64,000 nt of DNA. It comes from Escherichia coli (lineage in GTDB: Bacteria > Pseudomonadota > Gammaproteobacteria > Enterobacterales > Enterobacteriaceae). The position numbers and the translations under genes were made by a program. The DNA lies in assembly GCF_030013595.1 (NCBI RefSeq), contig NZ_CP122768.1, one strand, 5' to 3'. Positions 127-49,044 of the stretch are shown here, piece by piece. How positions within the stretch are numbered: the first letter of the stretch is position 1; each line of letters starts with the position of its first letter. Under the pieces are notes generated by a model. The model had not been told where the DNA came from. It did no database searches and saw only the letters and a list, made by a program, of their open reading frames with translations.

Positions 127-713
127 AACCCCACCTCGCAGACAAAGCGGGTGTAAATTGAGGGAATACAACGTATCGCAAAAAAGCAGAAACGTAACTG
201 ACTCCGAGTCAGTGAATAACTCAGGTATTGAGTTATCAGCTAATATCGAGACTCAAAAAATGGAAAAACCAGCTCGACGGCGGGTTTAAGCTGTGTGACG
301 AAGTAACCACTCTTAACAGCATAACCAATTTTTTACGTACGTAAACCACTGAATGATATTTATGAGAATGCTACCGAGTGTTCAAAACATCACCACAAAT
401 ACATAAGAAAACCTCAACAAATAACCAATAAATAATTTCCAGTGTTATTTTTAGCCGGTTTAAATTAAACAGACGAATTATAGAACCACCATAAATAACA
501 GCCATTAATATAAATTAGCTAATAGATTTATTTTTGTTCAAATAAGAGCCATAAATAGGTTTCGATAGAAAAAGTTCAGATAAAAATAGAGATCTACTTC
601 ACAAATTAAATGAGAAACTAAAACTTACATCTTGAAATAATCACATTGATTAGATGAATATTTATCGCGCAGTGACATCATTTTTTAATAATAGTTCAAA
701 AAAAGGGCTCACG

Positions 714-1811
714 ATGAAAAAATTAACAGTGGCAATTTCTGCTGTAGCTGCATCAGTACTGATGGCGATGTCTGCTCAGGCAGCTGAAATTTATAATAAA
801 GACAGTAACAAGCTGGATCTGTACGGGAAAGTTAATGCCAAGCACTACTTTTCCTCTAACGATGCAGATGATGGTGATACTACTTATGTTCGTCTGGGCT
901 TCAAAGGCGAAACCCAAATCAACGATCAGCTGACTGGTTTCGGTCAGTGGGAATATGAATTCAAAGGCAACCGCGCTGAATCTCAAGGTTCCTCCAAAGA
1001 CAAAACCCGTCTTGCATTTGCAGGCCTGAAATTCGGTGACTACGGCTCAATCGATTACGGCCGTAACTACGGTGTAGCATACGACATCGGTGCGTGGACT
1101 GACGTTCTGCCAGAATTCGGTGGCGATACCTGGACCCAAACAGATGTGTTCATGACTGGTCGCACCACTGGTGTTGCAACCTATCGTAACAACGACTTCT
1201 TTGGTCTGGTTGATGGTCTGAACTTTGCTGCTCAGTACCAAGGCAAAAACGATCGTAGCGATTTCGATAACTACACCGAAGGTAACGGTGATGGCTTCGG
1301 TTTCTCTGCTACCTATGAATACGAAGGATTCGGTATCGGTGCAACTTATGCGAAATCTGATCGTACCGACACTCAAGTTAATGCAGGGAAAGTTCTTCCT
1401 GAAGTATTTGCTTCCGGTAAAAATGCAGAAGTTTGGGCCGCAGGTCTGAAATATGACGCTAACAACATTTACCTGGCCACTACCTATTCTGAAACCCAGA
1501 ATATGACTGTATTTGCTGATCACTTCGTTGCTAATAAAGCTCAAAACTTCGAAGCTGTTGCACAATATCAGTTCGATTTCGGTCTGCGTCCGTCCGTTGC
1601 TTACCTGCAATCTAAAGGTAAGGATCTTGGAGTATGGGGCGATCAGGACTTAGTCAAATATGTTGATGTAGGTGCAACCTATTACTTCAACAAAAATATG
1701 TCTACTTTCGTTGATTACAAAATCAACCTGCTTGACAAAAATGACTTCACTAAAGCACTCGGTGTAAGCACTGATGACATCGTTGCTGTAGGTCTGGTTT
1801 ACCAGTTCTAA
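714..1811 (+). CDS. nmpC: Outer membrane porin NmpC (OmpD/OmpC family), prophage-encoded, intact 365 aa
   Basis: Signal peptide [23 protein letters not shown], porin motifs, C-terminal ...VGLVYQF; ORF track start at 654 is an upstream in-frame extension. Confidence 0.85.
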
Positions 1812-1948
1812 TCTGATTACGAAAAAGATATGTTGCGGGAGGCGTTGCCTCCCCAACATATAAGTGGCTCCCTCAAGCCACTTCCTTTAGGAGCACAACC
1901 TTGCTTCTAACTATATAAACCTTCTGTTATATATTACCCTTTATTTTT

Positions 1949-1973
1949 GGGGGCGTTGCAACGCCCCATTTTT
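1949..1973 (+). terminator. Rho-independent terminator downstream of nmpC
   Basis: Perfect hairpin ggggcgttgcaacgcccc followed by atttttaat. Confidence 0.55.
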
Positions 1974-2000
1974 AATAACTTTCAGTAAACAATTGGCATA

Positions 2001-2399
2001 TTAATTAGAGTTATTAACAACGATATCCATCTCTAACCGGATATCTAATGCCATTAACATCCCTTCAATTATGCCCTCAGCCTTCTGTAACCTTTTCCCG
2101 ATATAACCATCAGAGCAGCAATGCTTACCTGCCAGTGACATGAATGTCATACCGACTACATAATAATCTACTAATAAATCGTGCAAATCGCTGTTGTTCT
2201 TTTTCAGACGGGCCATGCACCCGCAAATAATCATCGCGTCATCGTCACAACATTGCGGGCGAGATTTTACTTTTGAAGGAATTAATCCCTTAAAACCGGC
2301 GGCAATGGACGACCAGGTCACATCTTCATGATTATTAGCCGCCCACGCTCCCCAACGTTCAAGAACCATCTGAATATCACGCATTAACTTTCTCCACAA
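2001..2399 (-). CDS. quuD: Late-gene antiterminator Q (QuuD-like)
   Basis: 132 aa; sequence matches my recall of DLP12 QuuD; sits directly upstream of the porin/lysis region as in K-12. Confidence 0.75.
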
Positions 2400-2401
2400 A
2401 A

Positions 2402-3397
2402 TCAGGCCAGCACACCAATCGCCAGTGCGCGATCGATAAAACGAAATATCAGCTCCAGCTGGGAGCCATACTTCTCTTCAAATGCCACGGTATCCGCATG
2501 CAGTTCGTCGTGGTGTTTTCTGCACAAAGGCAACACAAAAAGGTCATGCGCTTTTGTACCCATTCCACCCTGACCATGGCCTATCAGATGATGCGGATCA
2601 TCAGCTGGCTTTCCACAACATGCACACGGCTGTGTCTTAACCCAGCGCGTGTACTTTTCATTAACCCAGCGGCGACGTTTTGGGCGTAACATAAAAGACT
2701 CCGGCGACTCCGGATCCACTTTCAGCGCCAGCACCTTTTTCGCCTTATCCTGGATGATGCTGGTGGCAGGAACCGAAGGCACAAGGTCACTTTCCCGGGT
2801 AACAGACGGCACAACAGGCTTCGGTAATCTCAGTGCCTTACGGGCTGCACTTTCCGGTAAGGCATCCGCCAGATCATTACGAATCAGCCACCAGCACAGT
2901 TCCGGCATTGTCACAACGTGACTGTCATCAAAACCGAGATCCCGACGCACAACAGACAACACCCAGCGGGCACAGTTATCCGTTGCCATTGATTCCAGCC
3001 GTTCCGTGAACTGATCGCGCAGCTGGTTATCGCAGTGCCAGCACAGACGGATTGCACCCGGAGCGTGTCGCATTGTGGTCATGTTCTCGCTGTGCCAGTC
3101 GGAATGAGGCCACTGGCAGCCTTTTTCACGAAGTAACCAGCTTTCAAGACATTCCACGCCACCAGCACGACGGATCACTGCCTCATTGCGGAACACGGCC
3201 CGAACGGCAGGATCATCCGCCAGCGGTTGTGATGCCGCCGGAACGGCACCACTGGCGAAAGATGAATAACGCTCCGGCTCAGGCTCCAGCAGGACACGCC
3301 CCTGCATAAACAGGGGCATCAGCTCTGAACCTGGCCTGAACAATACGATCCCCATACGCGGGGCAATTTCAGGGGTCAGTAGTGCTCTCACGGTCAC
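2402..3397 (-). CDS. DUF968 family phage protein (YdfU-like) with C-terminal Cys/His HNH-like motif
   Basis: 331 aa; C-terminus CACCGKP...HHLIGHG...[10 protein letters not shown]; nin-region position. Confidence 0.55.
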
Positions 3398-3398
3398 C

Positions 3399-4241
3399 TC
3401 AATGAACGGTATCGAGCAGCTTTAACAGCTCAGGGAATCGGGATTCGAAGAAATGCGGCTGTGTCTCGCGCGGATTTGCGGGACTGGTGATGTTCTTGCC
3501 GAACATGCAACCTTTCGCTGTCAGCGACCAGAATTTTTTGATGTTGTTAATCGCTGTACGGCTGTATCGTTCGCGCTGCTCGACGATCCCCAGTTTCACC
3601 ATCTGGTGATATGCCTGATTAGCCGTCAGGCGTATACCATACTGTTTCAGCAGTGCACTCAGTGACAGTGTCGGGCGACTTGAGCCATCGTGTGCATCAG
3701 CAGGAGCATCAATGGCATAGCGCGGTGCCAGATTCGGTAAGCCAACAGCCTCCTGGAGTTTCTGACAGGCACCAAGCACTGAAGAGTTAGACAGGTTTAA
3801 CTCCCGGCGCATAAAGTCCAGCAGGATCACGCCAGCCTGCATCTTGTCAGCAGCCTGTCCGGATAATTTTTCCGGTGCGCTGGTTACCATATCGAAAGTA
3901 CGGATCACCTTCAGATGGAATGACGGGCTGATCCACATTGCATAGGCATACACCAGTTCCTTGCAGACATACGTTCCCCGTTCATTTCCCCCATGAATCA
4001 CACTCACCGGGTCAACACCCAAATTCTGGGTGTTGGTCAATTCATGAACAAGCTCAACAGTTTGTTGGCTGGAAAGAAACTTTCCCGGCTCCTTGGTTCT
4101 GGCATTTGCACCAGATGCTACTGCTGCGCGATGCAGATCGTTCAGGCTGTAACGCCCATAAGCATCACGACGAACTTCAATACCATCAATGACCATCAGA
4201 TTATTCATACTTCGTTTCTCCTCTTGATCAGGCGGCTGCAC
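3399..4241 (-). CDS. KilA-N domain protein / putative phage antirepressor
   Basis: 280 aa; N-terminal KilA-N-like segment MVIDGIEVRRDAYGRYSLNDLHRAA; start may be the internal Met at 4208. Confidence 0.5.
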   Translation of the reverse strand: MQPPDQEEKRSMNNLMVIDGIEVRRDAYGRYSLNDLHRAAVASGANARTKEPGKFLSSQQTVELVHELTNTQNLGVDPVSVIHGGNERGTYVCKELVYAYAMWISPSFHLKVIRTFDMVTSAPEKLSGQAADKMQAGVILLDFMRRELNLSNSSVLGACQKLQEAVGLPNLAPRYAIDAPADAHDGSSRPTLSLSALLKQYGIRLTANQAYHQMVKLGIVEQRERYSRTAINNIKKFWSLTAKGCMFGKNITSPANPRETQPHFFESRFPELLKLLDTVH

Positions 4242-4617
4242 CCGCCGTTTTCTCGTACTTACTGATAGTGATCTCGACCTTCCCTTTCGGGATAACCGGT
4301 CCCCACTCCACCAGCATTCTTTTCACCTGACTGTCGTCTTCCCACACACCCGCATGGGTCAGGGCGTCAAACAGCGCCTTGTTATAGTTGTCCAGATCGC
4401 GGATCCGGTTATCCGGAGGAAACAACACGATCTCCACTGAAGCAGGTGCCGACGTTGGTTTCGGCAGACGACGTAACTGCTCAACTATTGCTGCGCACGC
4501 CGCGCTCTGGAATTTGCGCCCCGCTGCGCTTATCAGACTCTTACCAGCAAACGCCCCTTTGTTGGGGTGTCGCCAGTACGTGTTCACGCTGGGCGGGAAA
4601 GGCAAGATCAGCTTCAT
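4228..4617 (-). CDS. rusA: Holliday junction resolvase RusA family
   Basis: 129 aa; ...RDLDNYNKALFDALTHAGVWEDDSQV... matches RusA catalytic-region pattern. Confidence 0.75.
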   Translation of the reverse strand: MKLILPFPPSVNTYWRHPNKGAFAGKSLISAAGRKFQSAACAAIVEQLRRLPKPTSAPASVEIVLFPPDNRIRDLDNYNKALFDALTHAGVWEDDSQVKRMLVEWGPVIPKGKVEITISKYEKTAGAAA

Positions 4618-4940
4618 ACTTTCAGGCCCCTCTCATGTAACCAGTGGGCTGCACGCAGCCTGGCGTTTTCCTCACCGGCAAGCAGTGCGCGGATAATCCC
4701 GACCGCCTCGCTGTCGTCGTCCTTCACCGCGGTATGAAGAGTTATCCCCCGGGCCACGCCACGCTTTATCGTGATGACGCCTTTTTTCTCCAGTGCGCGA
4801 AGATGCTCCACCGCTGCATTCACCGAACGGTATCCCAGCATGGTTGCCACCTCCTGATTGGTTGGCGGAAAGCCACGTTCTTGCTGGTAAGAAATCAGCA
4901 TATCCAGCACCTGCTGCTGGCATTGAGTTAACGTCGTCAT
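4614..4940 (-). CDS. LexA-type N-terminal DNA-binding domain protein, no peptidase domain
   Basis: 108 aa; LTQCQQQVLDMLISYQQERGFPPTNQEVATMLGYRSVNAAVEHLRALEKKGVI resembles the LexA winged-helix domain; 4-nt overlap with flanking genes. Confidence 0.5.
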   Translation of the reverse strand: MTTLTQCQQQVLDMLISYQQERGFPPTNQEVATMLGYRSVNAAVEHLRALEKKGVITIKRGVARGITLHTAVKDDDSEAVGIIRALLAGEENARLRAAHWLHERGLKV

Positions 4941-5590
4941 GCCGCCATCTCCCTGACCAGTTTTTCCGCCTGCTGGCGAACCTGCGCCAGAAAGGCCTCA
5001 CCACATGCCTCAAGTTCATCGCGCCCGATGTAGCTGATTGCCGGTCCCTTCCAGGTCTTGTCGAAAACAGCAATAGCACCAGCGAAGAAAGCGCCTGTCG
5101 GCACCTGCTTCTCGTCCTTCGGGATAAACCAGGCTGGCAGTTCAAAACCAATACGCCCGCGAATAAAAGCAATATGGTCTGCATCTTCCGGCCACCACAC
5201 TTCGCTGGTGGCAGCTTTGATCAGGAAAACATAGCGCCCGCCTTTATCACGCATGGCACTGGCATGCTTCATGATGTAACGCATGCCGGTGATGTATTGC
5301 CCCTCATGCTGACTGGCGCGGCTGTACGGGGGATTACCAAAGGCAGCACCTTTAAGCTCCGCAAGACGTTCTGACCAGTCATGCGCCAGCGCGTTGTCTT
5401 CCGCAGTGTAATACGCGGCGCATTTGGCGTTATCACCATCAGTAAACAGATCCAGAACAAACGGGCCAAACAGGGTGTTAATTCCCCAGAAAATGTTGTC
5501 CGGCGTGCGCCACTGATCGCCCACTTCCTTCAGTTCATGGGCTGGTTTGTTCCGCAGCTCCACCAGCGCCTGGCAATATTTATTACTCAT
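4937..5590 (-). CDS. Phage DNA N6-adenine methyltransferase (Dam-like)
   Basis: NPPY motif (GNPPYSR); start placed at Met giving TAATG coupling with the upstream gene; ORF track extends to 5623. Confidence 0.7.
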   Translation of the reverse strand: MSNKYCQALVELRNKPAHELKEVGDQWRTPDNIFWGINTLFGPFVLDLFTDGDNAKCAAYYTAEDNALAHDWSERLAELKGAAFGNPPYSRASQHEGQYITGMRYIMKHASAMRDKGGRYVFLIKAATSEVWWPEDADHIAFIRGRIGFELPAWFIPKDEKQVPTGAFFAGAIAVFDKTWKGPAISYIGRDELEACGEAFLAQVRQQAEKLVREMAA

Positions 5591-6084
5591 TAAGCCCCCA
5601 CGTAATTCCCTGACAGATACCACTCTTCACCCGATGCAGCGCGCTTGCTGCTTTTCCGTAAACACCGCTCACGACGCGCAAGAAAATTGTTTCGCTCTTG
5701 CTGGGAGTGGCTTTCACGGAATGCCGCCATCCACACCGTTGCAGCACGACGGTATAAGCCCCTGGACTCCAGTTCTTCCGCCTGGCGGGTCAGGCACAAA
5801 ATAACCCGGGGATCGTTAGTGCCGACATAGAAATTGCGCACAGGTCTGGATTCACGAACTGGTTGCGGTTCCGGCTCCTGCGGTATCTCAGTCAGCCGCG
5901 GGAAATGTCTGCGTGTATCCCCTTCACAACGGTGAGCCACACGCCCACTCTGACGTAACTTGCTTGCTGACTGCAGAACGCGCTGTCGTGAGTAACCTGC
6001 AAAAGCATCCGCAATGTCTCCGGAAGTACACCCCGGATGGGCTTCAATGAATTTCTGAACGTCATTCAAAAGACTCATGATCAC
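5590..6084 (-). CDS. Hypothetical phage protein in replication module
   Basis: 164 aa, translationally coupled to the replication gene upstream and the methyltransferase downstream. Confidence 0.45.
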   Translation of the reverse strand: MIMSLLNDVQKFIEAHPGCTSGDIADAFAGYSRQRVLQSASKLRQSGRVAHRCEGDTRRHFPRLTEIPQEPEPQPVRESRPVRNFYVGTNDPRVILCLTRQAEELESRGLYRRAATVWMAAFRESHSQQERNNFLARRERCLRKSSKRAASGEEWYLSGNYVGA

Positions 6085-7022
6085 CCCCTGAATCCTGCCG
6101 GGATCTGGCTGTAGTCCACGTTGTCGTAACTGGCTTTGAAGTACGGGTCTTCGCGTTTTTCGGTGTACGTGCTGACGGACGGCGATAAGCGCAGGGAAAG
6201 CTCATCCCATTTTTCCCGCAGCTTCGACGGGCTGAGCACGTTACGGCACCAGAACGGATCGCGACTGACGCGGCTGTACATCTCGCAGATTTGTTTATGA
6301 GTACGACCATCCTGCACACACATCAGGCGAATTTCGTTTGCCCAGGCTGTCCAGTTCGGTTCTTTGGGACGAACCACCTCGCCGTCACATTCGGCGGCAT
6401 GCTCGTACAGGGCGATGATTTTTTTCCAGAGCCACTGTGCGCAGGTCAAATCATCCTGCGTCCCCCACTGGCGCTTTTTAGGGCTGAATACAACCGCATC
6501 AGGATGGCGAGTTAAAAAATCCTGTTCAGCCGTCTGCGTGTCCGGTTGCGAAGAGTCCGGACGAGAAGGTTTTTTATCTGACGGATCATGTTTTGATTTT
6601 ACTGACGGATCCCCGCCAGATTCTGACGGGTGAAAACCCGCTTTTTTGCCAGATTTCGACGCATCAAATTTTGACGGGTCAGATTTTGATGCGTCAGATT
6701 TTGACGGGTCAGAATCTGACAGTTGAGAAAATGCCGCTGCCTGAAGCTTCGCAACGTTAAGCTGATAAACATTCGACGCATTGCGGTTACCCTGGCGACG
6801 CGCCTTACGCGTTAACCAGCCTTCTGCTTCCAGCCGTGCGATAGCCGTTCTGACGGTACTCATCCCCGCGCCAATCTGGCGGGCAATGGTTTCAATCGAT
6901 GGCCAGCACACACCTTCGTCATTACTGAAATCAGCCAGGCGGGCCATAATTGCCACGCTGGATAATTTCATGCCTGACGCTGCGCAACCATCCCATACAT
7001 AGCCGGTTAATTTAGTGCTCAT
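6081..7022 (-). CDS. Putative phage replication initiation protein (N-terminal wHTH, O-like role)
   Basis: 313 aa; HTH segment CWPSIETIARQIGAGMSTVRTAIARLEAEGWL; repetitive SDPSKSDASK linker encoded by internal iterons. Confidence 0.55.
   Translation of the reverse strand: MSTKLTGYVWDGCAASGMKLSSVAIMARLADFSNDEGVCWPSIETIARQIGAGMSTVRTAIARLEAEGWLTRKARRQGNRNASNVYQLNVAKLQAAAFSQLSDSDPSKSDASKSDPSKFDASKSGKKAGFHPSESGGDPSVKSKHDPSDKKPSRPDSSQPDTQTAEQDFLTRHPDAVVFSPKKRQWGTQDDLTCAQWLWKKIIALYEHAAECDGEVVRPKEPNWTAWANEIRLMCVQDGRTHKQICEMYSRVSRDPFWCRNVLSPSKLREKWDELSLRLSPSVSTYTEKREDPYFKASYDNVDYSQIPAGFRG
6575..6730. repeat. Iteron array (putative prophage ori) inside the replication gene
   Basis: About 8 tandem copies of a TGACGG(A/G)TC-like unit (tctgacggatc, actgacggatc, tctgacgggtg, ttgacgggtc x2, ttgatgcgtc) followed by an A/T-rich stretch. 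Confidence 0.55.
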
Positions 7023-7031
7023 GACCGACCT

Positions 7032-7370
7032 CTATTTCCCTGAATTTACGACGAAACTGTTCGAGCGGACTGAAGCACTCATGCTCATAGCCTTCGCGGA
7101 GGTAGATAACCCGTTGTGTTTCCGGTTCCCAACGAATGACTCTGACGGGCACTCCGTAGTGATCTTTGAACCAGCGGTTAACTTGTCGCAAAGGACTGTC
7201 TCCTTCTGCCGGTTGAAATCCCCCACAGCCCACTCTGCAAAGCTGTGGGTTACAATTTCCCTGTCACCTGGTACATTCACTGCATAGCAATATTCCACCT
7301 TCGCTTTTCCACCCGGTACAGGAAGCGCAATCAGTTGCGAGCGACGGTAGTGTGTTGTTAAACTGTTCAT
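7032..7370 (-). CDS. YmfM-like e14-type phage protein
   Basis: 112 aa; 4-nt overlap with the upstream CII-like gene; C-terminal half overlaps an alternative-frame ORF (7012..7233). Confidence 0.45.
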
Positions 7371-7936
7371 GCGTTAGTTTCTCCACAACCAGAAGCAATC
7401 GACGCCACGACGCCCGGAGCTGCACACTCGCGGGCGTCATTACTTTCTGAAATGCAAAAGATTTTGTAGACCAGTGCTGCATGCTCCTGCAGCTTCGAAA
7501 TTGAGAGATACAGCTCGTCGTTAATTGCTGTCTTCTCATGCGGTTCCACTACACCGTCTTCGATTGCTGAACGAATCTGTTTTGAATAACTGCCGATCTG
7601 TTCAATGACTTCCAGCAGACGCTGGTTAATATCGGCGTTGTCCACATCCTCGACGTCAGGAAGCGACACAAAGACGCCATTTGCAGACTGCGCCACAGCA
7701 TCAGCAATGAAGTGAGTGCCACCAGCACGCTGTAAAACCATTGCCCATCCCAGCGGGAAAATCTGATCGCCATCTGCACGAAGGCGGTTGAATAAAGCGT
7801 TTTCTGTTACATCGAGCCAGTCAGCCGCTTCAGCGTAACCACCCGGCAACGCCGCGATAGTTTTTCTGACAGCTTTCACGTACCACTCAGGCTGTTTTTC
7901 TATTTTCCAGTGATGCTTACCCACGATTAGCCTCAT
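7367..7936 (-). CDS. YmfL-like / CII-type phage regulatory protein
   Basis: 189 aa, directly downstream of cro in the rightward operon. Confidence 0.55.
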
Positions 7937-7967
7937 CGTTCTGTGGTTAAAAATTGAAAGTGTTCTG

Positions 7968-8168
7968 CTAATCTTTCGGATAGATATCCGGTCTTAAGTC
8001 AGATTTCGTAATTGCACCTGACGTGCATTGCTCAAGTTTTTTAGCCAGCACAAAACTGGCTTTTTTATAGCCATTGAAAACCAGCCGTAAGTAGCCAGGA
8101 GTTGAGCCAACTTTTCCGGCCAACTCGCCCTGCTGTTCTTTGGTTAAAGAGTCCCAATACGCTTTCAT
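7968..8168 (-). CDS. Cro-like repressor
   Basis: 66 aa MKAYWDSLTKEQQGELAGKVGSTPGYLRLVFNGYKKASF... with HTH; GGAG SD; divergent from cI; ORF track's 167 aa is an upstream extension. Confidence 0.65.
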   Translation of the reverse strand: MKAYWDSLTKEQQGELAGKVGSTPGYLRLVFNGYKKASFVLAKKLEQCTSGAITKSDLRPDIYPKD

Positions 8169-8222
8169 ACAATATGTACCTCCGGTGTACATATTACATG
8201 ATTGAAATGAACCTTCAAGACA

Positions 8223-8243
8223 CTTGTACCTTAACGGTACAAG
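8223..8243. promoter_or_regulatory. Putative OR operator palindrome between cro and cI
   Basis: cttgtacc-ttaa-cggtacaag inverted repeat; further TGTAC half-sites at 8175 and 8186. Confidence 0.45.
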
Positions 8244-8258
8244 GGTTTTAATTTCGTT

Positions 8259-8933
8259 ATGAAAACAATCCATGACATCCGGCGGTCTAACGCCCGAAAA
8301 CTGAGAGATGGTGTTGGAGGGAATTCTTCCTTTGCCACTATGATTGATCGCGAGCCAACCCAGACCAGCAGGTTTATGGGAGATGGTGCTACTAAAAATA
8401 TCGGTGACAGCATGGCACGACACATCGAAAAATGTTTCGACCTGCCTGTCGGATGGCTCGATCAAGAACACCAGACAACGAACATCACAAAAAAACCTGA
8501 TGTTTCAATCACTAATAAACAAATCACATTAGTCCCTGTCATATCATGGGTACAGGCCGGAGCATGGAAAGAAGTTGGATATTCTGAGGTTGATTTGAGC
8601 ACAGCAGAAACGTATCCCTGCCCTGTACCCTGTGGGGAAATGACTTATATCTTGCGGGTGATAGGTGATTCAATGATTGATGAGTACCGCCCGGGAGACA
8701 TGATTTTTGTCGATCCTGAAGTACCTGCCTGCCACGGTGACGACGTTATTGCATTGATGCACGATACAGGTGAAACCACCTTCAAAAGGTTGATAGAAGA
8801 TGGGACACAGCGTTATCTCAAAGCGTTAAACCCAAACTGGCCTGAGCCTTACATTAAGATCAACGGTAATTGCTCTATAATTGGAACTGTGATTTTCTCA
8901 GGAAAACCAAGAAGATACAAAATCAAAGCCTAA
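8259..8933 (+). CDS. CI-like prophage repressor (HTH plus S24 LexA-like peptidase), CohE-like
   Basis: 224 aa; C-terminal S24 region ...VIGDSMIDEYRPGDMIFVDPEV...; divergent from cro. Confidence 0.8.
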   Translation: MKTIHDIRRSNARKLRDGVGGNSSFATMIDREPTQTSRFMGDGATKNIGDSMARHIEKCFDLPVGWLDQEHQTTNITKKPDVSITNKQITLVPVISWVQAGAWKEVGYSEVDLSTAETYPCPVPCGEMTYILRVIGDSMIDEYRPGDMIFVDPEVPACHGDDVIALMHDTGETTFKRLIEDGTQRYLKALNPNWPEPYIKINGNCSIIGTVIFSGKPRRYKIKA

Positions 8934-14113: not shown

Positions 14114-14190
14114 TGGCGCGCCCTGCAGGATTCGAACCTGCGGCCCACGACTTAGAAGGTCGTTGCTCTATCCAACTGAGCTAAGGGCGC
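14114..14190 (-). tRNA. argU: tRNA-Arg (anticodon UCU), argU
   Basis: Reverse complement GCGCCCTTAGCTCAGTTGGATAGAGCAACGACCTTCTAAGTCGTGGGCCGCAGGTTCGAATCCTGCAGGGCGCGCCA, 77 nt, cloverleaf-compatible. Confidence 0.95.
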
Positions 14191-35600: not shown

Positions 35601-35642
35601 GTCATACCACTCGCCTGATTATTTTTAGCTATGTTGGATTTT

Positions 35643-35669
35643 GCCACGGTTTATACCGTGGCTTTTTTT
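35643..35669 (+). terminator. Rho-independent terminator after allE
   Basis: gccacggt-ttat-accgtggc followed by ttttttt. Confidence 0.6.
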
Positions 35670-35684
35670 GCGGTAAATTCAGGT

Positions 35685-48633: not shown

Positions 48634-48695
48634 TGGGCGGTATTCTGAAACGGCGATTGTCGTGAGAACAAAATGGTTGCACCAGAATACAGATA

Positions 48696-48733
48696 TAAAA
48701 AAACCGACATGACAGTCGGTTTTTTTATTTTTT
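48696..48733 (+). terminator. Rho-independent terminator after mnmH
   Basis: aaaaaaaccgacatgacagtcggtttttttatttttt; a degenerate second copy lies at 49174-49203. Confidence 0.6.
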
Positions 48734-49044
48734 CCGCCCAAGACTTGGTGGTTCCGGGCAGAAATGAAACAGTCCTCATCTAGCAAGTGAATTATAAGTC
48801 AGGATGCCTACATATTCAAACAGCTATGTTGGCGATACAATCCCGACGCTAGTAGTGATACTGCCTCAAGGGATTACCGCAGTGCGGAAAAGTACTTTTA
48901 AGTCCTGGTCAGGATACAGGTGGTGCTGATTCTGGTGCTCTAATTTGGAGAGAGGCAGTCCTCATCTAGCACATGAAGAAAATCATAGTTACAGGCAACG
49001 TAAGGGTAAGCTGTGATTGTCTTTCTCCCTTAAGGGAGCAACGG

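Follow-up and report, generated by a model that had tools for sequence, protein, structure and literature searches.

A LexA DNA-binding domain without a protease in the SfV-type delayed-early region of an Escherichia coli prophage at argU

The window analysed here is a 64,000-nucleotide stretch of Escherichia coli DNA (RefSeq assembly GCF_030013595.1, contig NZ_CP122768.1), to which positions refer unless another record is named. The block at 2402–5590 is an SfV-type nin (delayed-early) region of a lambdoid prophage located at argU, the DLP12 site. It contains the following five genes, of which that for the LexA-like protein is the sole uncharacterised part of an otherwise ordinary early-lytic block:

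2402–3391 (start as given by the Prokaryotic Genome Annotation Pipeline, PGAP), minus strand: DUF968 protein with a C-terminal HNH/zinc-finger nuclease motif, 329 amino acids (PF06147, phrog_96)
3399–4208, minus strand: KilA-N domain protein, 269 amino acids (PF04383, E 2.6e-22)
4228–4617, minus strand: RusA-family Holliday junction resolvase, 129 amino acids (PF05866, E 6.6e-15)
4614–4940, minus strand: LexA DNA-binding-domain-only protein, 108 amino acids (PF01726, E 2.6e-19; phrog_362)
4937–5590, minus strand: Dam-like phage N6-adenine DNA methyltransferase, 217 amino acids (PF05869, E 1.1e-45; TIGR01712)

All five had been named in an initial annotation made from the sequence alone. They were borne out by profile searches, whose matches far exceed chance, and by PGAP, which gives the same five genes in an E. 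coli chromosome 100% identical over the block. The methyltransferase ATG has its A at 5590, and the DUF968 stop codon its final base at 2402. In the 100%-identical chromosome the prophage is adjoined by the argU tRNA-Arg and fimZ (PGAP), which places it at the DLP12 site. As the initial annotation had noted, the set is unlike the nin region of K-12 DLP12, which reads ybcN-ninE-ybcO-rusA-ylcG-quuD at the same argU site.

The combination had been presented as an accessory set; it is instead a standard SfV-type nin region. The SfV record (NC_003444) lists orf40 (PerC), dam (orf41), orf42 (LexA-like), orf43 (RusA), orf44 (KilA-N), orf45 (DUF968) and Q, and the window has PerC, Dam, LexA-like, RusA, KilA-N, DUF968 and Q in identical order. 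Further carriers of this set are SfII, cdtI, mEp460 and the Stx2c and Stx2a phages, and the LexA-like protein is 95–100% identical in SfV, SfII, SfIV, cdtI, mEp460 and the Stx2a- and Stx2c-converting phages. SfV is a virion genome with a Mu-like tail, whereas the prophage that holds the window copy occupies the argU/DLP12 site and has late genes of the DLP12 type (quuD, an nmpC-like porin gene and essD); joined to an early region of the SfV/CPS-53 type, these make it a mosaic. Two sets of IMG/VR loci were compared, 80 with a near-identical LexA-like gene and 80 that are more divergent. Q alleles vary between carriers of the module: in the near-identical set their identity ranges from 43 to 100% beside a nin block that is ~98–100% identical, which marks a mosaic breakpoint directly after DUF968, at Q. 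The 4-kb block, which other E. coli chromosomes share at 100% identity, has matches in 4657 of 5426 complete E. coli genomes; 1631 of these (~30%) carry 80% or more of its length.

The gene set as such matters little: SfV-like and Stx2c-like lambdoid phages have it as their usual nin region, and annotations of it exist in thousands of genomes. It is already catalogued, in the SfV genome paper of 2002, by PGAP (as ‘LexA family protein’) and by PHROGs (phrog_362). What is added here is descriptive: a conserved helical tail on the LexA-like protein, the family-wide loss of Glu44, a Dam gene that is optional, a constant DUF968 partner, and an operon headed by an SOS box and dinI in Klebsiella relatives. 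A literature search found no functional study of this enterobacterial LexA-like family.

The LexA-like protein matches positions 1–65 of the 65-position PF01726 profile, and its residues 1–68 are ~50% identical to E. coli LexA. It is made up of a winged helix (1–68), a flexible linker (~69–73) and a two-helix tail (74–103). In an AlphaFold2 model of the monomer, for which 15 family sequences were used (mean predicted local distance difference test score, pLDDT, 84.8), the winged helix has helices at 6–22, 28–35 and 40–52 and strands at 56–58 and 66–68; the tail helices at 74–88 and 93–103 have block-mean pLDDT values of 88–90, and the linker at 71–73 is of low confidence. Foldseek placed the N-terminal domain on DNA-bound LexA (3JSO) at 0.9–1.0 Å with 50% identity, its matches to 3JSO and 1LEA having root-mean-square deviations of 0.9–1.2 Å; the tail has no counterpart in LexA. 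The earlier description of a LexA domain lacking the autoprotease was correct: the protein stops at residue 108, has no match to the S24 protease domain (PF00717, Peptidase_S24), and scores 70.3 bits with the TIGR00498 lexA model (cut-off 110.95), over profile positions 1–91 only.

LexA contacts DNA through Ser39, Asn41, Ala42, Glu44 and Glu45 (PMC3091678). Four of these five (Ser39, Asn41, Ala42 and Glu45) are kept in the LexA-like protein, Glu44 being replaced by Val, and the wing motif Arg64-Gly65-Ile66 is invariant. An exhaustive HMMER search recovered eight distant tail-bearing members (37–53% identity by HMMER, 40–50% in MAFFT alignments). The tail pattern is present in all eight, so that it is conserved down to 40% identity, and Ala97 and Leu101 do not vary. 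Since LexA dimerises via the C-terminal domain that is missing here, a new dimer interface would be needed, and the modelled tail, a hairpin on a flexible linker with no core of its own, is probably the interface that replaces that domain.

A stretch reading ALLAGEE, aligned by HMMER with RVAAGEP of LexA, was considered as a mimic of the cleavage site and rejected: in relatives the Gly is changed to Asn, in another the preceding Ala is Val, and the motif is gone in distant members. The HMMER search for family members also returned ten metagenome proteins in which two LexA DNA-binding domains stand in tandem and S24 is missing (P0128, P0135, P0141, P0144, P0148, P0149, P0156, P0159, P0163 and P0164). 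They are unrelated to the window locus and resemble pseudo-dimers in a single chain, as would fit a requirement of two domains at each operator.

The five genes are preceded by cro, a cII-like gene, an O-like gene and PerC; the initial annotation had placed them between the replication genes and Q, which holds except that the PerC gene separates the replication gene from the methyltransferase. The flanking features are:

2001–2384, minus strand: Q antiterminator (quuD; PF06530, E 9.8e-54), at the downstream edge of the module
5590–6084, minus strand: PerC/YfdN-family regulator, outside 2402–5590 (PF06069, E 2.3e-09; PGAP name yfdN)
6081–7022, minus strand: O-like replication gene, upstream of PerC
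7956–8156 (window-equivalent, from PGAP on the identical chromosome), minus strand: Cro/CI
8165–8249: inverted repeats I4 and I5, operators between cI and cro, likely the pR region from which the whole leftward operon would be driven (inverted-repeat search)
~8254–8880 (window-equivalent, from PGAP on the identical chromosome), plus strand: LexA-family cI
14114–14190: tRNA-Arg(UCU) (ARAGORN)

The PerC stop and methyltransferase start codons overlap as TAATG, ATGA overlaps join the methyltransferase to the LexA-like gene and the latter to RusA, and the other intergenic gaps in the block measure 7–19 bp. A promoter scan of 1800–8400 gave four sites (5.0 expected), with no minus-strand site inside 2402–5590; a dam promoter annotated in the SfV record was not picked up by the scan. 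An internal promoter enabling expression in the lysogen was rejected, there being no promoter-like signal above chance. Since stop and start codons overlap in this chain and none of its genes has a convincing promoter, the five genes most likely remain silent in the lysogen until the repressor is lost, with pR as their sole source of transcription. This fits published work in which prophage-borne methyltransferases were transcriptionally silent in lysogens of other E. coli strains (PMC4659465; PMC5778455).

Expression from pR alone makes it unlikely that the protein occupies SOS boxes constitutively, as the initial annotation had proposed. On such a view the protein would be present in the lysogen and sit on host SOS boxes, damping both SOS induction and the frequency of prophage induction. 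The view has in its favour that RecA-stimulated self-cleavage could not remove a LexA DNA-binding domain that has no autoprotease. However, the gene lies in a cI-repressed pR operon, is translationally coupled and ATGA-chained, and has no promoter-like site of its own; the silence of nin-region methyltransferases in lysogens points the same way. Moreover, by our reasoning, an uncleavable SOS repressor in ~30% of E. coli would give a phenotype like that of LexA(Ind-). We consider constitutive occupancy very improbable.

Other observations concern the same region. PerC/YfdN (5590–6084), with which the translationally coupled chain begins, has a weak match to the ANR negative regulators (24 bits, cut-off 32); PerC homologues on prophages of enterohaemorrhagic E. 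coli are virulence regulators. Terminator-like hairpins in 1800–8400 numbered 19, ~3 times the 6.7 ± 2.8 found in shuffled sequences, and most lie inside coding sequence; a strong one at 1950–1967 probably ends the porin gene. That OmpC/NmpC-like porin gene (654–1811, plus strand), flanked by Q and the lysis genes and oriented against late transcription, is intact, unlike nmpC, its K-12 DLP12 counterpart, which is broken by IS5. Inside the O-like gene, at 6658–6720, GTCAGATTTTGAC-like units recur in nested form, both inverted and direct; they encode a repetitive SDPSKSDASKSDPSKFDASKS stretch of the protein and look like origin iterons.

The more divergent relatives of the LexA-like gene have a different setting. 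Of the 80 divergent loci, 58 have an SOS box matching 14–19 of the 20 consensus positions no more than 900 bp upstream of the gene; this box usually heads an operon of dinI, a 75-amino-acid open reading frame (ORF) and the lexA-like gene in Klebsiella prophages. In the three loci that were read, the box overlaps a promoter-like region and is followed by dinI (in L011), a conserved 75–82-amino-acid ORF and the LexA-like gene. The Klebsiella-type loci (L095–L160 of the IMG/VR set, L006, L009, L011 and L175) have a canonical box, such as TACTGTTTATTTATACAGTA (18/20), and the order dinI, 75–82-amino-acid ORF (GYAxIRCxDG...SFVPL), LexA-like gene, 67-amino-acid ORF, DUF968 and Q; Klebsiella phage ST846-OXA48phi9.1 (L175) matches this with DinI, a hypothetical protein, a DNA-binding protein, a hypothetical protein, DUF968 and Q. 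A box at the head of the operon would place a promoter controlled by host LexA just upstream of the nin/Q region in these prophages. Since that box heads the dinI/lexA-like operon, the Klebsiella-lineage LexA-like gene is, to judge from its sequence context, itself LexA-repressed and co-expressed with an inhibitor of the RecA co-protease (DinI). Such operons appear to tie the family to SOS biology. They are not proof that its members bind SOS boxes, because the recognition helix differs between alleles while the box stays canonical.

A second type of SOS box was seen downstream of Q: TACTGTAAAAATAAACAGTG and variants (15–16/20) occur in SfV (L094, 34170–34189) and in L009 (6739–6758), and a similar box is found at +3333 to +4219 in several of L096–L174. 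In SfV and L009 the box coincides with the start of a DNA methyltransferase gene (PF01555-type), suggesting that these two have a second methyltransferase under LexA control; the window prophage has the porin gene at this place.

The company kept by the LexA-like gene bears on another explanation of its function. RusA (PF05866, 56.3 bits, cut-off 22.8) is 39% identical to K-12 RusA, and its Asp74, Asp76 and Asp95 align with Asp70, Asp72 and Asp91 of the K-12 enzyme, three aspartates that are essential for activity. It lies directly downstream of the LexA-like gene, with an ATGA overlap, in all 80 near-identical loci and no more than two genes after it in seven of eight distant contexts. After RusA, these contexts usually have KilA-N or pRha/ANT, then DUF968, then Q or another antiterminator. 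Among the 80 divergent loci, 78 have DUF968 downstream but just 18 have RusA there, which makes DUF968 the most constant companion of the gene. The LexA-like protein might accordingly be no transcription factor at all, and serve as a DNA-binding or DNA-bending accessory of the recombination and nuclease functions of RusA and DUF968. The ATGA overlap with RusA, the conserved adjacency and the presence of DUF968 even where RusA is absent would all suit such a role, for which lambda NinH, a mimic of a host DNA-binding domain beside a junction nuclease, is a precedent. Against it, co-inheritance of the block explains the synteny, as lambdoid nin regions generally keep the order of their slots (compare VT2-Sakai); RusA and DUF968 are both known without the LexA-like gene (K-12 DLP12 and Serratia phage BZS1); and NinH showed no preference for junction DNA (PMC7166090). 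We regard an accessory role as improbable. The persistent synteny may reflect a co-inherited block that fills the slots of Roi/Ant, Rap/NinG and NinH in VT2-Sakai.

The DUF968 protein matches PF06147 (E 3.5e-81, 271.7 bits) and phrog_96, ‘HNH endonuclease’ (E 2.9e-177), and is borderline for PF16784 HNHc_6 (26.9 bits, cut-off 26.6); its translation contains CxxC...HH...CxxHH, and it is predicted to be an HNH-type nuclease. In the KilA-N protein, PF04383 covers residues 18–120 and the PHROGs match is phrog_129 (‘transcriptional regulator’), while the C-terminal 153 residues have no Pfam match even at E values up to 10. The protein had been called antirepressor-like, which its domain content does not support, as PF04383 was the only domain found and there was no match to ANT, Bro-N or pRha. 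Its slot has two main alleles (~100% and ~87%) in related loci, and pRha/ANT in distant relatives. No sequence relatives of the methyltransferase, the DUF968 protein or the KilA-N protein were found in the PDB.

The methyltransferase is well above the cut-offs of the TIGR01712 equivalog (255.6 bits, cut-off 97.05) and of PF05869 (155.7 bits, cut-off 28.1). The initial annotation had named a nonfunctional motif as grounds for dropping its proposal; the catalytic motif, NPPY at residues 86–89, is intact, and GNPPYS (85–90) aligns with NNPPYS of M.EcoVT2Dam. The latter enzyme, of the Stx2 phage VT2-Sakai, is GATC-specific (PMC6602927). It shares PF05869, a similar nin-region position and the NPPY motif with the window enzyme, from which it differs in being 42 residues shorter, and the two are 31% identical. 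Identity to the product of SfV dam/orf41 is 99% (215/217), and because of this the predicted target is most likely GATC. The SfV genome paper by Allison et al. (2002, J Bacteriol 184:1974) is reported to have confirmed orf41 as a Dam methylase by experiment. Membership of a non-specific methyltransferase family was rejected, M.EcoGII being a 349-amino-acid beta-class enzyme and Hia5/Hin1523 alpha-class relatives of Dam.

The same 99% identity argues against the methyltransferase being something new, and it is also dispensable. In the near-identical set, 61 loci have the gene, 18 lack it and one is too short; in the 18, PerC abuts the LexA-like gene directly. Its absence has also been noted in SfIV (PMC3851460), its presence is independent of that of DUF968 in the near-identical loci, and in distant relatives its slot holds other families (C5 enzymes or C5+D12 fusions). 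The idea that it is an obligate partner of the LexA-like gene was rejected on these grounds (absent from 18 of 80 modules and from SfIV; other families in the slot). No cognate restriction gene was found beside it, its neighbours being PerC and the LexA-like gene, and PADLOC matches the methyltransferase alone. Membership of a defence system was likewise rejected, as PADLOC gives generic methyltransferase models only. Many RefSeq phage records (SfV, SfII, cdtI, mEp460, Chi and others) label the PF05869 methyltransferase ‘phosphoadenosine phosphosulfate reductase’; the label apparently spread from phrog_33262, a profile of 495 positions of which the enzyme matches 283–492 only, and looks like an annotation error.

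Taken together, we lean slightly towards reading the locus as a lytic nin block whose LexA-like protein, dimerised by its tail and insensitive to RecA, binds LexA-box-like palindromes once host LexA has been cleaved. The genes would be silent in the lysogen and transcribed from pR once cI is inactivated. The methyltransferase would then methylate replicating phage (progeny) DNA, probably at GATC; RusA and the DUF968 protein would process recombination and replication intermediates, in the slot held by Rap/NinG in other lambdoid phages; and the KilA-N protein would be a DNA-binding protein. Because it has no protease domain, the LexA-like protein would not be cleavable through RecA. It would dimerise via its helical tail, bind LexA-box-like palindromes with CTGT-type half-sites, and act in lytic growth, after LexA cleavage, as a stand-in made by the phage, or as a modulator, in the transcription that LexA controls, not as a constitutive occupant of SOS boxes.

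Several results weigh against this reading. A search of the prophage for LexA boxes, both as CTG-N10-CAG scored against the E. coli consensus and as CTGT-N8-ACAG, gave no credible box: the window has no exact CTGT-N8-ACAG, its one-mismatch hits are at chance level (22, with 17.8 expected), and the best CTG-N10-CAG site in the prophage matches 12 of 20 consensus positions and lies inside the KilA-N gene. Position 44 is non-acidic in all eight distant tail-bearing members, while in the canonical LexA hits shown it is Glu (helix NAAE). Recognition-helix residues 43–45 vary by allele (AVE, AAE, VAL, VLL, VFI, AVD and others; over the longer helix, AAAE, AVAL, AVLL, TVFI and others), although the upstream SOS box is canonical. 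An AlphaFold2 prediction of a Gly-Ser-linked pseudo-dimer was not confident (pLDDT 65, predicted template modelling score 0.34), and so speaks neither for dimerisation nor against it. As for the methyltransferase, GATC specificity rests on the 99% identity to SfV Dam and on what the SfV genome paper is reported to have shown, identity to M.EcoVT2Dam being only 31%.

A recognition helix that varies beside a constant box argues that each allele has its own specificity, and the LexA-like protein may be a phage-specific transcription factor, activator or repressor, with its own phage or host operator which does not touch SOS boxes, comparable to gp6 of phage GIL01; we give this a minor share of the probability. 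The family-wide loss of Glu44, and the hypervariability of helix 43–45 among alleles in the same slot, as in immunity-type specificity proteins, would be expected of such a factor. So would its divergence (43–50% identity), which is faster than that of RusA (67–77%) or DUF968 (49–67%), and the absence of an SOS box from the window prophage; the site of gp6, too, differs from the LexA box. On the other side, four of five LexA contacts and the wing are kept in the window protein, Q already serves late transcription, and no candidate operator is apparent: non-coding DNA is scarce, the inverted repeats of 1800–8400 are the iterons and the cI/cro operators, and an operator search of the small non-coding gaps and the Q–porin spacer found nothing beyond these.

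Within the preferred reading, a surrogate or modulator acting on LexA-box-like palindromes, exact SOS-box specificity is weakened by the replacement of Glu44, here and in all tail-bearing relatives, and by the allelic variability of the recognition helix. Binding to canonical or near-canonical SOS boxes is thus possible, with the balance somewhat against it. A stronger version, which we think unlikely, is that the family is a viral, RecA-insensitive surrogate LexA whose hairpin dimer re-occupies SOS boxes and shuts down the SOS regulon in lytic growth. If so, LexA-controlled rival prophages, colicins and toxins would also be switched back off, and in the Klebsiella relatives a promoter under LexA control would express the protein together with DinI, an inhibitor of RecA, forming a self-limiting ‘SOS-off’ cassette.

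The block carrying the LexA-like gene is present in ~30% of complete E. coli genomes and in Shiga-toxin phages. If the protein rewires LexA-controlled transcription after induction, SOS-dependent processes would be affected in lysogens exposed to DNA-damaging antibiotics, among them Stx phage induction, prophage competition, colicin release and mutagenesis. GIL01 gp6 would then no longer be the sole example of a LexA DNA-binding domain borrowed by a phage, the present protein adding a second and independent one.

Outside the prophage, two sites in the host chromosome score above the Rfam gathering thresholds, the small RNA STnc480 (84.9 bits) and the antisense RNA AgrB (53.6 bits):

35607–35673: STnc480
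48695–48783: AgrB

The concepts involved are established. That of a truncated phage LexA homologue comes from GIL01 gp6, and that of a nin-region mimic of a host regulator from NinH. Compared with E. coli LexA, the window protein shares Ser39, Asn41, Ala42, Glu45 and the wing Arg-Gly-Ile, superposing at ~1 Å over residues 1–68, and lacks both the S24 domain (Ser119/Lys156) used for dimerisation and self-cleavage and the Ala84-Gly85 cleavage site. Lambda NinH is a mimic of the Fis DNA-binding domain with its own dimer interface, encoded in the nin region next to Rap (PMC7166090). Like the window protein it is small, imitates the DNA-binding domain of a global regulator of the host, and comes from the nin region just upstream of Q, where its gene has that of a junction-specific nuclease as a neighbour; the replacement of the host dimer interface by a C-terminal region of its own would be a further shared feature if the tail dimerises as proposed. 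However, NinH copies Fis and not LexA, has another fold and is non-homologous, and its dimerisation and DNA binding have been demonstrated experimentally.

Along with NinH, the closest precedent is gp6 of GIL01, a tectivirus of Bacillus thuringiensis; gp6 is a truncated LexA homologue that binds DNA (PMC6182141). Both are phage-encoded LexA winged-helix domains without the protease; gp6 is produced at an early stage of lytic growth by a temperate phage with links to SOS, and the window gene lies in the early operon of a prophage. Unlike the window protein, gp6 has no counterpart of the 35-amino-acid two-helix tail, and it binds a palindrome of its own at the late promoter P3, which it activates, whereas the window phage has Q and no operator was found. 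The pairing of gp6 with gp7, a LexA co-repressor that blocks cleavage, recalls that of the LexA-like protein with DinI in Klebsiella.

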